Shown: in pieces, positions 40,783-48,360 of the stretch
Position numbering within the stretch: position 1 is the first letter of the stretch
How the letters are laid out: every line of letters starts with the position of its first letter
The notes under the pieces: generated by a model
Seen by the model: the letters and a program-made list of their open reading frames with translations, nothing else
What the model was told of the DNA's origin: nothing
The model's database searches: none
Program-made: the position numbers and the translations under genes
DNA from: Escherichia coli
GTDB lineage: Bacteria; Pseudomonadota; Gammaproteobacteria; Enterobacterales; Enterobacteriaceae
DNA: 64,000 nt
Assembly: GCF_029227855.1 (NCBI RefSeq)
Contig: NZ_CP074356.1
Reading direction: 5' to 3' (one strand)

Positions 40783-40935
40783 GTTATTAACCTCCTAAAG
40801 CCTGGCGATAACACGATAATTTGCAAATCAGATATTTCCAATATCAGCATTTGTTATCAATTTATTCTGCGCTAAGGCAACTGCCTGATAAGGTGTTAGA
40901 GTTATAAAACCCTTCGCATAAAGGAGTTGTACACC

Positions 40936-41706
40936 GTGTCTGGTTTGAAGATTACGCTTTTACAGCAACCACTGGTGTGGATGGATGGTCCTGCCAACCT
41001 GCGTCATTTTGATCGTCAACTGGAAGGTATTACCGGACGCGATGTGATCGTTCTACCGGAGATGTTTACCAGCGGCTTTGCCATGGAAGCGGCAGCTTCG
41101 TCGCTAGCACAAGATGACGTAGTGAACTGGATGACAGCCAAAGCGCAGCAGTGCAATGCGCTGATTGCAGGCAGTGTTGCATTACAAACGGAGTCTGGTT
41201 CGGTTAACCGCTTTTTGCTGGTTGAGCCGGGCGGCACGGTACATTTTTATGATAAGCGTCATCTGTTCCGCATGGCAGATGAGCATCTACATTATAAAGC
41301 GGGCAATGCGCGAGTGATTGTGGAATGGCGCGGCTGGCGTATTTTGCCGCTGGTGTGCTACGACTTACGTTTTCCGGTGTGGTCGCGCAATCTCAACGAT
41401 TATGACCTCGCCATCTACGTTGCCAACTGGCCTGCTCCGCGCTCTCTGCACTGGCAGGCATTGCTGACGGCCCGCGCGATTGAGAATCAGGCGTATGTGG
41501 CGGGATGCAATCGCGTCGGCAGCGATGGCAACGGCTGCCATTATCGCGGTGACAGCCGGGTGATTAATCCACAGGGCGAGATTATCGCTACTGCCGACGC
41601 GCATCAGGCAACGCGCATTGATGCGGAGCTGTCGATGGTGGCATTGCGGGAATATAGAGAAAAGTTTCCGGCATGGCGGGATGCGGATGAGTTTAGGTTG
41701 TGGTGA
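40936..41706 (+). CDS. yafV: nitrilase-superfamily omega-amidase YafV
   Basis: ORF track (40927-41706); GTG start at 40936 nine nt after AAGGAG; carbon-nitrogen hydrolase family by eye. Confidence 0.8.
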   Translation: MSGLKITLLQQPLVWMDGPANLRHFDRQLEGITGRDVIVLPEMFTSGFAMEAAASSLAQDDVVNWMTAKAQQCNALIAGSVALQTESGSVNRFLLVEPGGTVHFYDKRHLFRMADEHLHYKAGNARVIVEWRGWRILPLVCYDLRFPVWSRNLNDYDLAIYVANWPAPRSLHWQALLTARAIENQAYVAGCNRVGSDGNGCHYRGDSRVINPQGEIIATADAHQATRIDAELSMVALREYREKFPAWRDADEFRLW

Positions 41707-41744
41707 GTGGGTGTTGTGTTTAGGGGCGGGGTAAGACTACGGGT

Positions 41745-41767
41745 CAGGGCAAGATTACGAAAGCCCG
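41745..41767. repeat. 23-bp direct repeat, left copy, flanking the IS256-family fragment
   Basis: cagggcaagattacgaaagcccg; 22/23 identical to 42121-42143. Confidence 0.6.
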
Positions 41768-41800
41768 GAGCCTGTCCATCATTCTGTGTAAATGCCTTTC

Positions 41801-42043
41801 TCAGAAGTGACCGTCAAGGCGGTCACCGAACTCGATAATAAAGCGACTCATCCCTATCCGCCAGTCCTGAAGTGGCATCGTCCATTTTTGCGACGCTGAC
41901 TGGAAAGCCAGCCACACCACTTTTTTCACCGACTCATCTGTCGGGAACACTTTCCGTTTCTTTATCGCATGTGTGATGATGCTATTCAGCGATTCGATTG
42001 CGTTAGTGGTGTAGATAACCTTGCGGATCGCCTCCGGGTACAC
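41801..42043 (-). pseudogene. C-terminal fragment of an IS256-family (Mutator-type) transposase
   Basis: ORF track 80 aa ...YTTNAIESLNSIITHAIKKRKVFPTDESVKKVVWLAFQSASQKWTMPLQDWR... matches the conserved C-terminus of IS256-family transposases; the N-terminal ~300 aa are absent. Confidence 0.6.
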
Positions 42044-42120
42044 GAAGAATGTGGCAACATTCGGCCAGTTTGCCCGCCAGCTGCGACTTATCTGCGGGTA
42101 CCGTGCATCCCATTCCTTCC

Positions 42121-42143
42121 CAGGGAAAGATTACGAAAGCCCG
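42121..42143. repeat. 23-bp direct repeat, right copy
   Basis: cagggaaagattacgaaagcccg. Confidence 0.6.
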
Positions 42144-43263
42144 CTCCCCGCAAGGACTGACGCCAGATAGTTTCTGTCCATGGCTGCTTTTCGCATCTTA
42201 CGTCTTAACCCTGCCTTGAATACCTTATCATTCGTCAAAATATTAATAGCGATGTGCCGTATCCCTGAAAATAATTCTGCTGCATTTCCTCTTCTTATTT
42301 TGCAGTCGTCTTCATTCATTACCACGTCCAGACGCCAGTGCAGCTTATTCTCCACGTGCCAGTGGTTTCGGATTGCTGTGGCGAACTTCTCTGCGGTTAA
42401 ATCAGCAGAACTAATATAATATCTGACCGCCATTTCTGGCTCTTTCTTTTGTTCTGCTATTATTGACCGAAAGGAGACTGCCACGCATAATTTCTTCAGA
42501 CCTTTCCATTCAAACGTGAAATCAATAAGTTCATCAGGGACATCGCAAACAATGTGAAGACGGATTTCTTCTCTGCCGTGACTCTTTTCACTCATTGCGT
42601 AACTGTCATGCTCTGGATTATTTAATTCTTTCAGCGGAAATTCTCGAAGGCTTTATTTAGCCGCCCCTGGTTTCCTTTTACAGCGAATAAATAATCACCT
42701 CCCTGTTTTTGTATCTTCTCTGCAATATCTTTCTGGCAACCCATCGCATCAGTTGTGATGATTTTTCCTTTAATATCCAGCATGTTAAGAAGTTCTGGGA
42801 TAGCTGTAATTTCATTGGATTTCTCATCCGTCCTGATCTGTCCGATGACCAGACTGTGCATTGTTGAGAACGCACTAATGACATGAATCGCTCCCTTGCG
42901 GCGACTCTTGTCATAAGAATGCCGGAGTGTTTTTCCATCAATTGCGATGACGTCTTTATCATCTGAAGTATGGCAATCTCGCATCCAGTTAATAAAGCAC
43001 TCGTGAAATTTTGCAGGACTGATACAGGATACAACTCTGGCGATGGTATCGTGAACAGGAATACCATTTTAAAAATCACCGTATTGTTTTAAAAAATCGA
43101 GATGTGTTTCCCCAAAATCCTCTATATCTTCCCAACCTTCCGCACCCGAAATAACAGCACAAATAGTCAACAGTAGAATATCCGATAATTTATGTTCCAC
43201 TTTCCAGGCTTGTCTGTAATCGGGGATAATAGAAATATGCCCCATCAATTTTTTAAGTTCTAT
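42131..43263 (-). mobile_element. ISAs1-family (H-repeat) transposase gene, inactivated
   Basis: Track ORFs 42631-42984 and 42131-42595 are consecutive parts of an ISAs1/H-rpt transposase in different frames; hand translation of 43263-42985 gives the N-terminus with ATA in place of the first ATG (an in-frame Met codon remains at 43245-43243), and an in-frame TAA at 43071-43069. Confidence 0.8.
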
Positions 43264-43483
43264 TTTGTTCTCCTTAATTATGTAAGGAGTATTTGATCAT
43301 GTATAAGCAATAAAAAACAGCTTTAGGTAATGAGGAATATCTCAATTTTTAAGCATAAAATGCGAATTATTTAGTACAAAAAAGCAGCGTTACGTGATCT
43401 TTCCCTGCACTTCACCCTAACTTTAATTTAACTTCAAGAAGTATTAAGGCCTCAATAGCGAACTTAATACTTCTTAAAGAATA

Positions 43484-43861
43484 TCACTCCTGACCAAAAT
43501 CTTTCCACACTAATGCATGAGACTTTGATTTATCACCCAAAAATTTACTTACATCTTTCCAAAGTAAAGAATTGCTATCGGTCGCAGTGACTATTGCCTC
43601 TATAAGCCCTGTAGCTACAACTGTGGCCAATTCATCATCAATCGAGACCATACCATCTTCGACATGTTTAAATATTTTTTCTCTTTCAATATCACCCATT
43701 TCATAAAAATTTTTTACAATCGTTTTTCCAATCTGAGAGAACAACATAACCACCGGTGGAGTTTCTGGATGCCAGTATTCATTAGCTAATGAGACTGTCT
43801 CAGACAAAACAGTGGAAAACGATGCCATTTTTTCTATATAATTAGCAATATATTGGTTCAT
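43484..43861 (-). CDS. putative immunity protein for the Rhs C-terminal toxin, 125 aa
   Basis: ORF track; small AT-rich ORF whose ATG overlaps the rhs stop codon; classic effector-immunity arrangement; family unknown. Confidence 0.5.
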   Translation of the reverse strand: MNQYIANYIEKMASFSTVLSETVSLANEYWHPETPPVVMLFSQIGKTIVKNFYEMGDIEREKIFKHVEDGMVSIDDELATVVATGLIEAIVTATDSNSLLWKDVSKFLGDKSKSHALVWKDFGQE

Positions 43862-46800
43862 TACTTGCCTCCCAAAGCATTCTGTAAATCCTGAAGAACG
43901 TTTTCTGCTGCTGCTCGATCCCCTGGAGATGCTGTTGGATTCTTATCCAACCAATCCTGTAAAGCCCTTGTATAATCCTGTGCTTTCAATACATGTCCTC
44001 TACCACCAACTTTTTCACCTGTGGCCAATTCATAACGAACAGCATCTGCTGTGCTTCCACTTCCTACTTTTGCATTTGGCCGATAAAGATCGTCTATAAT
44101 ATTTTTCAAATTTGAATCTGTAACGTCAGGTTTTCCCATCTTCTGTCGCAATTCATCTTTATACCGTTCATGCTGCATACGATCTCTTGCGCTATTCTCA
44201 TCTTCTGGTCCCCATCCTCCCGGGCTTCCCGTACTGCCACCACCCAGGCAGTTCTTCTCTTCCTCCGTCAAATCCTTCCCGACATTTGGATTCTCTTTTG
44301 ATGAATCATCATTTCCAAACACGCTGGAAAAAGCACCATAGGGATCTCGCCAGAATTCCATTTGACTTTGTGCATTTAATAATTCGGCTTCACCCTGCAT
44401 CTCCATACTTTTCTCAATCGCGTCCCCAACAGCCTCGCGATTGTTGTATATTATTATACCACCACCAATAACCACCGTACCGACTGCCGCACCGACTAAC
44501 ATCCCCGGAGGGCCTCCTACCGAACCGATCTCTGTACCTACTTCAGAACCAGTTCCCATGGCAGTTAATGCTCCTGCGCCCAACGCCGCACTTAATCCCA
44601 GCGGATCCAGCCGTTGCACCGGGTTCAGTGGATACGCATACAGGTTCCATCCCCCCTTCAGCCCAATCGGATCCTGGGTGATATACCTCCCCTGTAGCGG
44701 GTCATAGTACCGGTGACGGTTGTAGTACAGCCCCGACTCCTCATCATACTGCTGCCCCGGCAGACGGAGTGACTGTTGAAGGTGCTGCGTGCTTTCCTCT
44801 CCCAGCAGGTTTCCCCACTCGTCATACTCCCCGCGCCACGCCGTTTCCCCTTCCGGGCTGATAAGCGCCTGCGGCAGCCCACGGTGGTCACAGTGGTAAA
44901 GATGAAGTTTCCTCTCCGGGATGTATTCCGCCTCCAGTTGCGCCGCCATCTGTTCCGCCGTCAACCCACACTGTGCAAGCCACTGCTGGCTTTCTTCACT
45001 CACGCTGCCCTGCCGCAGTTCCCGCTCCAGCCTCCCCAGCATCACCGCCAGCTCCGCCGGTAGCGTCACACCCGTGTCCTCCTGCAACACCTCCGCCAGG
45101 CTACGGTGCCGCGCCTTCGCCTGTTCGCCATTCTCTGTTTCGATTCTCAGGAGCGGCGTGAAGCTCCCCGGCTGGTATACCGTCTGGATACGCGTGGTGT
45201 CGGTCTGTACCGTCGTCAGCCTGTCGCCGTCCCACCCGTACCAGGTCACCTCCGGTTTACGCGACAGCGACATCCACCCCGTCAGGTCACGCTCCCGCCG
45301 CCACACCCGTTTTCCCGTCCGGCGGCCCAGCGGGTCATAGAGGTAGCGGCTCTCCACCTGTGGCTCGCCGTGCTGTATCCGCGTGTAGAACACCAGGCGG
45401 TGCTGGCTGTCGTAATGGTAGTGGTGCGTCCGCTCGTCGTGCATCCGTATCACCCCTTCCGGGATACGGTCCGTCTTCTCCGCCAGCCTGCCGTATTCAT
45501 CGTAGCGGTAGACATAGTGCGCATCTTCCGTGATGCGGTTATCCGGCCACGCCGTGAGGGTGCTGTCCGGGTGCAGTTCCGGGTCCGGCAGCCGGTTTCC
45601 TGCCGGGTCCGTCGCATACGGGATATCAATGTCCAGGTTCGCTGCCGTGGTGTGGACGCCCGTCAGCCTTCCCGTGTCGCTGTAACGGTACTCCCGGCTC
45701 TCCTGCGGGCCGCTGATGCGAATTAGCTGTCCGTTGTCGTTCCAGTCGTAGTCACGGTCAAGCTGCGGAAGGTTCAGGTGCCTGCTCCGGAGCTGGCCGC
45801 TGGTATTCCAGGCGGTGGCAAGCTCATATGCCTCCCCGCCGAAGCTGCGGGCCGTCTCACGGTGCAGCCGGTCCCGCGTGTACTCGACCAGTGGCGTACC
45901 ACCCAGCTTCATTCCCGCAAGATAACCGCTGCCATACGTCAGCCACTCCACCGGCGGCAGACCGTCCAGCTCCTGACGGGTCGCCAGCCCCTGTTCGCTG
46001 TACGCGTGCTTCGTCTCATGCTCCCACAGCATCTCCCCCGTCTCCGGGTTCTCCACCGTCTGCCGTTCGCCCGTCAGGCGGCCTTTATCGTCGTGGCCGT
46101 AGTGGACCGCCACACGGTGGCCTTCGCTGATATGGCTGATTTCTGTCAGCCAGCCGTGCTCATCATACTGCCACTGCTCCGCCGGGTCGCCGTTCACCGT
46201 CCGGTGCGTGATGCGGTCCGACGCATCGTAATGCCAGAGGGTGATAAGTCCCTCGTCTTCACTGTGGACAAGCTGCCCTGTGGCGCTGTACCGGTAACGC
46301 TGCGTCCTGCCGTCAAAGCCGCGCTGCTCCGTCAGCCTGTCCACCGGGTCATACCGGAACGTGGACTGGCTGCCGTTCTCGTTGGTCAGCACGGTGATGC
46401 GCCCGGCAGCGTCATACCCCATGCTGCGCGTCAGACCGCCTTCCGTCACACTCACCGGACGCCCGCGTTTATCATATTCGATGGTGCTGCGTTTACCGTC
46501 CGGTGATATCGTTGCTGTCAGGTCGCCTGCGGCGCTGTACTCATAACGGGTTTCACGCCCCTGCGCATCCTTCTGACTGACCAGTTGGCCTCGCGGGTTA
46601 TAACTGCTGTAAGTGCTGATGCCTTCCTCCCGGTGAACGGCGATTTGTTGACCGTACCGGTCATACTCATACCGCGTCATGTACCCCGAGCAGTCCGTGA
46701 AGGCCCGAAGCTGACCGTACCGGTTTCGCGTTATTCTCCGCGTCACCCCGATTCCGTCTTCCACCGCGCCGGGCAGGCTACTGCGGGGGGAGTCATAAAA

Positions 46801-48360
46801 CCAGCGCGTAATGTTACCGTTGCGCGAGATCTCTTCTGCCAGTCGGCCCTGACGGTCATATTTCCGGCTGCTGCGTAAACCATCCGGATATGTCACTGAA
46901 GTCAGTTGCAACTGGCTGTTGTAACCATACCGTACCGTCCTGCCGTCCGGCAGTATCACTGAAGTCAGCTTTCCAGACGCCATATGCAGCCGGTACTCCG
47001 TCCGCCGTCCTGCCGCATCCGTCTGCGCCTTCAGCCTCCCCGCCTCATCATACTCGCTGCGGGTGATGCTCCCGTCGGCATGCTCCTTCTTCACCACACG
47101 CTTCAGGCCACCCCCGCCTTCCGTGTACAGCACCTCCCGCCGGTTCAGGCTGTCCGTGATGGTCACACGGTCCTGCCCGTACTCAAAGCGGTAGTCCAGC
47201 CCCTCCGGGTTGACCTGCTCCGTCACCCGCCCGGTATCATCATACCGGTAGCGGCTCTCCGGCCTCCCTGCATAATGGTGCGCCACCATCCGCCCGGCGT
47301 GCTCCGCATCATAAGTAAACCCGCGCACCTGCGTCCCGCTGCGGTCATACACCGCCCGCAGTTCTCCGCTGGCCGTGTACGTATAGCGCGCCAGCGGCGC
47401 AGTCGGCTGTTCATCCGGGTATGCCGGGTCGTGTGTCAGCCACACCGCCTCCAGCCGGATACCGTTATCGGCACCGTATTCTGTACCGGCGGGCAGCGTA
47501 TCGGGGAAAACCTGAGAAGAGGAAACAGAACGGGGACCGGCTGGAGAAGATAAAGAAGAGGCGCGCTGTTTACGGAAGGCTTCCGCCCGCTGCGCCTGCG
47601 TGCTCAGCGCCAGGTGAAAACAGCGGCCCGCGCCGTCCGTCACCCCCGTCACCGCACCCGCCACGTCACCCTCTGCCGCCCGGTGGAAGGCCAGCGTCCG
47701 CCCGAAGCCGTCCACCACGCCCGTCAGCACCCGGTATGCGGGCGGCTCCGGCGGCAGCACCTCGTCCGCCCCCGGCACCCGCTCCGGCCAGCCGAGCACC
47801 AGCCACTGCCCGGTTGTGCTGGCAGCCATCATATAGATGTGTGGACTCAGACGGACCGCTTCCGGCAACGCCCGCCAGAGCCGCGCAAGCGGGTGGCCTT
47901 TGTGCTGTTTCAGCACCCCGCACCGCGCCAGCCAGAACGACTCGCTGCGGCTGTAGCTTATCTCGCCGGGAAACAGGGGTTCAAAGTGAATGCTCCTGCC
48001 GCCGCTGTCGTTGAGTATCAGGCCTTCATCGCGTATCTGTAAGCGGATATCGAAGGGGGCTTTCCAGCCGGGACCAAACACCCCCACCGGCGCGGGCGTC
48101 CTGGTCCGGTAGCTGCTGTAGGCGCGGAAAAGAACAAACGGCAGCGGGCCGGACAGTGCCAGGTCGGTTTCAGCAGGCAGCACCTTCGCTCCCAGCAGCG
48201 GGTTTACCGGATTGCCATATTTCGGCGTGGCTTCCCCTGTGGGACACACCGAGCAGGCCACACCGGTTGGCGCACCTATCAGCACCCCTGCTGAACCCTG
48301 CACAATATCCAGTCCCTTGCGGGTCATGTCACCCTGCCGCGCCGCCGGTTTTCCACCCAT
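43861..48360 (-). CDS. rhs: PAAR-domain Rhs (YD-repeat) polymorphic toxin, 1499 aa, with variable C-terminal toxin domain
   Basis: ORF track; N-terminal PAAR motif ([11 protein letters not shown]...), long YD-repeat core, DPLGL core-end motif at 44593-44607 followed by a ~243-aa C-terminal domain of lower GC. Confidence 0.9.

Follow-up and report, generated by a model that had tools for sequence, protein, structure and literature searches.

A probable three-layer insertion sequence scar beside yafV at the edge of a T6SS/Rhs island in Escherichia coli

In a 64-kb stretch of E. coli DNA, hereafter called the window, a 23-bp direct repeat is located next to the gene yafV at the edge of a T6SS/Rhs island. 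Judged by sequence comparison, this repeat appears to consist of two copies of the terminal repeat of ISEc1, one of which is orphaned and one of which is still attached to its element. Together with the DNA that they enclose, the two copies very probably form a three-layer insertion sequence (IS) scar beside yafV, which is composed of an ISEc1 stub, a piece of an IS1414-like element and a complete ISEc1. The scar is ordinary mobile-element wreckage at the island edge, both elements come from known families, and by itself it matters little. PGAP already treats both elements as pseudogenes, and a published IS list (PMC6963479) contains the ISEc1 copy. The scar does account for a repeat that might otherwise pass for the attachment site of an island or for an uncommon kind of target duplication. 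It resembles the IS graveyards at island borders, in which insertions of one IS into another and later deletions leave stubs that look like direct repeats. There is no difference in principle between the two; the local peculiarity is that IS1414-group elements repeatedly hit the first 63 bp of one ISEc1 end.

The direct repeats at the yafV junction

The last conserved backbone gene at this locus is yafV (40927-41706, plus strand), which codes for a 2-oxoglutaramate amidase and was identified by a CN_hydrolase domain (Pfam, E=4.8e-33) and by the annotation that RefSeq gives for the identical locus in strain 7/2. Its end is separated from the left repeat by 38 bp, which include the conserved flank GGGGTAAGACTACGGGT (41728-41744) adjoining the original ISEc1 end. 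On the other side of the scar, the first cargo of the T6SS/Rhs island is a gene for an Rhs core protein (43861-48360, minus strand; 'RHS element core protein' in RefSeq at the identical locus), beyond which island genes for VgrG, Hcp and TssB/C/F/G/K/L are found. Directly downstream of the Rhs core gene, the ORF list contains a small ORF of 125 amino acids (43484-43861, minus strand). It shows only a sub-threshold match to DUF7674 (E=4.6e-4; 20.7 bits compared with a cut-off of 27) and, judged by its position, probably encodes the immunity protein of the Rhs toxin tip. A 17-nt inverted repeat (43432-43479; 94% complementary, 14-nt spacer) is located immediately 3' of this ORF and just outside the far end of ISEc1, and may be the terminator of the ORF.

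The left 23-mer (CAGGGCAAGATTACGAAAGCCCG, 41745-41767) and the right 23-mer (CAGGGAAAGATTACGAAAGCCCG, 42121-42143) are in direct orientation, differ by a single mismatch (C/A at position 6) and start 376 bp apart. They are separated by 353 bp (41768-42120), in good agreement with the initial annotation, which had described a segment of about 355 bp between near-identical 23-bp direct repeats; a minus-strand ORF of 80 amino acids (41801-42043) lies within this segment. When the window was searched for the 23-mer with up to three mismatches, the two copies were the only matches in the 64 kb, and 0.00 matches are expected from shuffled sequences.

The right 23-mer corresponds to the first 23 bp of a decayed ISEc1/H-repeat of the ISAs1 family (42121-43407, minus strand, 1,287 bp), which was recognized by its inverted repeats, its Pfam domains, RefSeq annotation and a published IS table. 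The inverted repeats CAGGGAAAGATTACGAAAGCCCGCT (42121-42145) and AGCAGCGTTACGTGATCTTTCCCTG (43383-43407) are 25 nt long and 80% complementary. The transposase is split into three ORFs (43248-43069, 42984-42631 and 42595-42131), on which the ISAs1-type transposase domains DDE_Tnp_1_assoc (PF13808, E=1.2e-19) and DDE_Tnp_1 (PF01609, E=5.7e-18 and 3.6e-9) are present. Members of the ISAs1 family are about 1.2-1.5 kb long and possess inverted repeats beginning with CAGGG, and target duplications of 0-10 bp have been reported for the family. With its size of about 1.29 kb, its inverted-repeat ends and its CAGGG start, the element in the window fits this description. It shares its length, the CAGGG termini, both transposase domains and the position just downstream of an Rhs core and tip with other ISEc1/H-repeat copies; unlike a typical ISEc1, however, it is a pseudogene in three ORF pieces, measures 1,287 instead of 1,291 bp, lacks a target duplication and has an orphaned 23-bp terminus 353 bp outside. 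No target-site duplication was detected for the complete ISEc1, as its flanks read TTCCTTCC and CACTTCAC; this is compatible with membership of the ISAs1 family, as recombination or deletion would be expected to remove a duplication. In RefSeq, the identical locus of strain 7/2 is annotated as 'ISAs1 family transposase, frameshifted; internal stop', and a near-identical intact copy in strain 746, with 9 differences in 1,291 alignment columns, as 'ISAs1-like element ISEc1 family transposase'. The copy of the window is also listed in the IS table of the ST38 strain 28Eco12 as an ISEc1 of 1,291 bp (PMC6963479), and the flanks given there are identical to those in the window. Other ISEc1 copies in E. 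coli become homologous to the window at 42120/42121 and open with the same 23-mer behind unrelated flanks.

The left 23-mer (41745-41767, minus strand) matches positions 1-23 of the transposase-distal inverted repeat of ISEc1, and a comparison with uninterrupted alleles and with the canonical ISEc1 end indicates that it is an orphan terminal stub. A 67-mer, in which the left flank of the window and the left 23-mer are continued by the ISEc1 body found after the right 23-mer, is present as a single uninterrupted piece in seven genomes. In the strains E04, 2014C-3075 and SCU-301, flank and 23-mer run into an ISEc1 that lies beside yafV as a single copy and has an intact transposase gene. This uninterrupted allele appears to be the state before insertion, and the left 23-mer is accordingly best read as the leftover of a resident ISEc1 end. 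Of the other four genomes with the 67-mer, PCN033 was examined; it contains a 57-bp ISEc1 end, followed by a 77-bp outer end of the IS and a complete ISEc1. The flank 41728-41744 is identical in the three uninterrupted alleles and in PCN033. The far ISEc1 flanks and the Rhs tips of the uninterrupted alleles differ from those of the window and are uninformative about the route by which the scar arose. The length of the repeat seems to be an accident of the point at which the IS was joined; the 'direct repeat' of PCN033 is 57 bp long and contains 2 mismatches. The appropriate annotation for 41745-41767 is a solo ISEc1 terminal repeat.

Further remnants of ISEc1 ends were observed near yafV. K-12 was considered as a clean empty site and rejected, as the only copy there is the degenerate end of an ISEc1 (TCGGGGTATTACTACGAAAGCCCG). 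The first 14 bases of the conserved flank (GGGGTAAGACTACG, 41728-41741) also open the degenerate ISEc1 end GGGGTAAGACTACGAAAGCCCG of K-12/RM7190-type strains (L001 3136-3160; L004 1639-1661), which is identical to the uninterrupted allele apart from the absence of 18 bp between TACG microrepeats. The 14-mer might instead be left over from an ISEc1 that is older still. Just upstream, GGGG runs enclose another indel, of about 11 bp. In E04, a 25-bp orphan of the other ISEc1 terminal repeat (AGCAGCGTTACGTGATCTTTCCCTG; L013 5309-5333) directly follows the far end of the complete ISEc1; it is the counterpart of the stub in the window on the opposite side, except that no foreign DNA separates it from the element.

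Of 5,426 E. coli genomes, 4,990 contain matches to a 67-mer that includes the 23-mer (median of 3 places each). Elsewhere in the genomes, the 23-mer is therefore a common motif unrelated to the fragment, which the initial annotation had itself named as the observation that would contradict its reading. That reading had two parts: the interpretation as an insertion or recombination scar at the island junction stands, but the implied assignment of the bracketing repeats to the IS256-family fragment does not, since the 23-mer is the terminus of ISEc1/H-repeat. The position of the repeats at the boundary between backbone and island is also what attL/attR-like sites left by an integrase-mediated insertion of the T6SS/Rhs island would show; such an origin is extremely improbable, however, because the repeats enclose 353 bp and not the island, whose other boundary is the tRNA-Asp gene aspV according to K-12 and SL124, and because the 23-mer is found at every ISEc1 end, yet just twice in the window. 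Attachment-site repeats of a genomic island were thus rejected as an explanation: they flank the whole island and originate from a tRNA 3' end, and neither applies to the 23-mers.

The trapped IS256-family fragment

The segment between the repeats (41768-42120, minus strand) is a 3' remnant of an IS1414-like element of the IS256 family, as revealed by Pfam and by alignment to relatives. Counted from the transposase-distal end of the IS, it comprises positions 1-353 of about 1,313. Its ORF (41801-42043) matches the Pfam family Transposase_mut (PF00872; E=1.7e-10, 40.8 bits with a cut-off of 21) at profile positions 324-377 of 379 only, that is, at the C-terminus, which confirms the earlier description of the ORF as the last 80 codons of an IS256-family transposase. 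PGAP calls this transposase a pseudogene, 'missing N-terminus'. The outer terminus of the fragment is intact (GAGCCTGTCCATCATTCTGTGTAAATG, 41768-41794) and contains the motif TGTAAA at 41787-41792, which has been described as a subterminal motif of IS256-family terminal repeats (PMC7780238). The homology of the relatives starts at 41768 (GAGCCTGTCC...) on an IncHI1B plasmid, on the CP52E chromosome, at another Rhs locus in 22AR0750 and in PCN033. As the same start base recurs in four unrelated contexts, position 41768 is the true terminus of the IS, and it is by this genuine outer terminus that the IS256-type element is joined to position 23 of the earlier ISEc1 end. The right edge of the fragment is an internal truncation which coincides with base 1 of ISEc1, and approximately 960 bp (about 73%) of the IS are gone.

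As in the IS256 family generally, the full-length relatives measure about 1.3 kb, have one transposase ORF and end with the inverse repeat ...ACAGGCTC on the other side. Over the length of the fragment, a full-length copy of 1,313 bp in CP52E is 95.8% identical. The fragment shares 95.5-96.0% identity with positions 1-353 of the other copies (353/353 bp) and 82% with IS1414. The element from which it derives has the termini GAGCCTGT...ACAGGCTC and the TGTAAA motif in common with IS1414, and the two are similar in size (1,313 and 1,315 bp). IS1414, however, carries astA/EAST1 inside its transposase gene, and the element of the fragment is distinct from it and about 18% diverged; no astA-like ORF was found in the fragment (best local score 28, compared with 211 in IS1414). 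In RefSeq, the element of the fragment is simply labelled 'IS256 family transposase'. Some match to this IS is present in 1,558 of the 5,426 genomes, a count which includes the distant relatives IS1414 and ISEc39. The scar locus has no evident present function and its coding sequences are broken. No Rfam family matched the region at E<=0.1, and no promoter-like sites were detected in it; one weak terminator-like hairpin is at chance level.

The remnant lacks its other end and so can have no target duplication of its own; related full-length IS1414 copies are flanked by 8-bp duplications. It is very unlikely that the repeats were created together with the fragment, either as a long target-site duplication or by the use of an IS piece as filler at a staggered break in an ISEc1 end. 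Both proposals could account for repeats that are direct, nearly identical and immediately adjacent to the fragment, and for the fact that the 376-bp unit, which was searched for with a 701-bp query across the E. coli genomes, is missing from most of them. However, IS1414-group copies duplicate 8 bp (GAACTCGA and GTCCATGG), as is typical of the IS256 family (PMC7780238), and 23 bp as an IS256-type target duplication was rejected because the relatives duplicate 8 bp. The left boundary is exactly an IS terminus and the right boundary exactly an ISEc1 terminus, which is the pattern of transposase-type junctions and not of random breaks. Moreover, neither proposal agrees with the difference between the copies at position 6 in the carriers examined or with PCN033, in which the repeat is 57 bp long with 2 mismatches and surrounds a 77-bp piece. 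The difference at position 6 is accounted for if the 23-mers stem from two different ISEc1 copies.

Distribution of the scar

The occurrence of the scar was determined in 5,426 complete E. coli genomes by searching with junction-spanning 80-mers, using a strict E-value and counting single-piece matches. The left junction was detected in 255 genomes, compared with 246 for the right one. Both are found once per genome, only on chromosomes and nearly always with at least 99% identity, and the whole 701-bp query is covered in 245 genomes, which is consistent with these numbers. A looser count with a 67-mer gave 575 genomes, which is too high, probably because alleles of other types were included by way of gapped or joined matches. 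In every carrier for which the context was fetched, the scar is located next to yafV. The carriers include the ST38 strains 28Eco12 and 266917_2, and others are labelled O102:H6, '405' or 'ST38'; those examined share the yafV alleles WP_000015780 or WP_000015781, which differ from the alleles of non-carriers. The simplest reading is that a single ancestral event was inherited clonally in a lineage that includes ST38. With about 250 carriers among the 5,426 complete genomes, the two unique junctions provide a clean clonal marker.

Individual carriers show further changes. SL124 (L017 3001-4146) still has the left junction with some of the IS remnant, but an IS1B is then followed straight by the tRNA-Asp gene aspV and by dnaQ; next to this IS1, everything between the remnant and aspV, including the complete T6SS/Rhs island, is deleted. 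Losses of this type probably account for some of the nine genomes which have the left but not the right junction. The carrier RIVM_C037884 has a 3-bp insertion in the right 23-mer (CAGGGAAAGATCATTACG...; L015 4394-4420), and its ISEc1 and Rhs tip are unlike those of other carriers.

Formation of the scar

The scar contains two junctions of the transposase type: the IS terminus is joined to position 23 of ISEc1, and the ISEc1 terminus is joined to position 353 of the IS. The most likely route to this arrangement, with about an even chance of being correct, is a nested insertion followed by recombination. In the first step, an IS256-type element would insert at a point 23 bp inside the end of the resident ISEc1. 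A second ISEc1 would then transpose into the inserted IS256-type element. Finally, the new ISEc1 would undergo homologous recombination with the old one's displaced body, by which the rest of the IS would be deleted. As the uninterrupted alleles have a single resident ISEc1, this route needs nothing more than that copy as its starting point. The final recombination would also leave a complete ISEc1 without target duplication, although other routes fit this observation as well. The mismatch of the two 23-mers at position 6 is likewise accounted for by this route.

No intermediate with a full-length IS at position 23 was found in the 5,426 genomes, and the reciprocal junction, in which the far end of ISEc1 is connected to the continuation of the IS, was present in none of them (0/5,426 at >=80% coverage), so that the second and third steps are inferred. 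A full-length IS beside yafV occurs only in the CP52E type (5 genomes), where it is joined to position 40 of the degenerate end and has no target duplication. The lack of the reciprocal junction counts in favour of a different course of events, which is a serious contender but falls clearly short of an even chance. According to this proposal, a tandem pair of ISEc1 was present, the IS was inserted at position 23 of the yafV-proximal copy, and the transposase of the distal ISEc1 caused an adjacent deletion from its terminus leftwards, by which the rest of the IS and the rest of the first ISEc1 were lost in one step. Tandem ISEc1 copies are in fact located next to yafV in many strains, in which the intact terminus of the second copy abuts a truncated first one (...GGAGTATTTGATC|CAAGGCAAGATTACG), and ISEc1 termini abut truncated IS copies at three points (353, 77 and about 501 bp). 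However, all three uninterrupted alleles with the exact flank of the window contain a single ISEc1 and no tandem, and the tandem-bearing strains carry a different, degenerate yafV-proximal end. Against both routes, transposition of ISEc1/H-repeat has reportedly never been observed experimentally, and ISEc1 activity of any kind is undocumented (PMC3032704). Nested insertion with subsequent recombination is the route preferred here.

Other junctions between IS elements and ISEc1 ends

In different strains, and always in one orientation, elements of the IS1414 group adjoin positions 23, 40, 57 and 63 of the yafV-proximal ISEc1 end (window 41767/41768; L008 2961-3001, CP52E; L016 4018-4151, PCN033; L012 2693-4023, LAU-OXA). 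A normal 8-bp duplication is found only at position 63, where the element is IS1414 proper; in LAU-OXA, IS1414 is located at the same locus with the 8-bp duplication GTCCATGG. These four junctions may represent a hot spot for insertion at this site, or they may have arisen through a number of IS-end deletions. At three points (353, 77 and about 501 bp), an intact ISEc1 terminus directly adjoins a truncated IS256-type copy whose missing half is not found beyond the ISEc1. The terminus-to-IS joints involve both ends of ISEc1, and orphan ISEc1 stubs are found on both sides of the element. Tentatively, and with a likelihood somewhat below even, the joints could be real footprints of the ISEc1/H-repeat transposase, produced by insertion or adjacent deletion, and the initial 63 bp at the yafV-proximal end of ISEc1 could in addition be a preferred target of the IS1414 group. 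The joints provide circumstantial sequence evidence that the Rhs-associated H-repeat has been mobile, or has at least been cut and joined at its termini, during the evolution of E. coli.

Additional rearrangements were noticed in individual strains. At a different Rhs locus with SymE genes in 22AR0750 (L009 3001-3520), a 3' remnant of the same IS256-type element, 501 bp long, ends at an ISEc1 of opposite orientation, which truncates it with its other inverted repeat (TAGGGAAAGATCACG) and borders at its far end on a fragment of an Rhs core. TUM1886 (L011 2737-4051) contains a full-length, intact IS1414 with the 8-bp duplication GAACTCGA inside an IS256 remnant of the window type. The record of this strain has 24 places which match the query for the full-length-IS intermediate, and IS1414 may be expanding in it. 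In CP52E, the sequence to the right of the full-length IS (GAACGAGAGTTAAATAATAAAAAGCCGGGAAGATTTGATATTCC; L008 4314-4360) is homologous to the unusual spacer of 190 bp that separates yafV from ISEc1 in strain 12689 (L006 1640-1700), which suggests further rearrangements among the regions downstream of Rhs tips.
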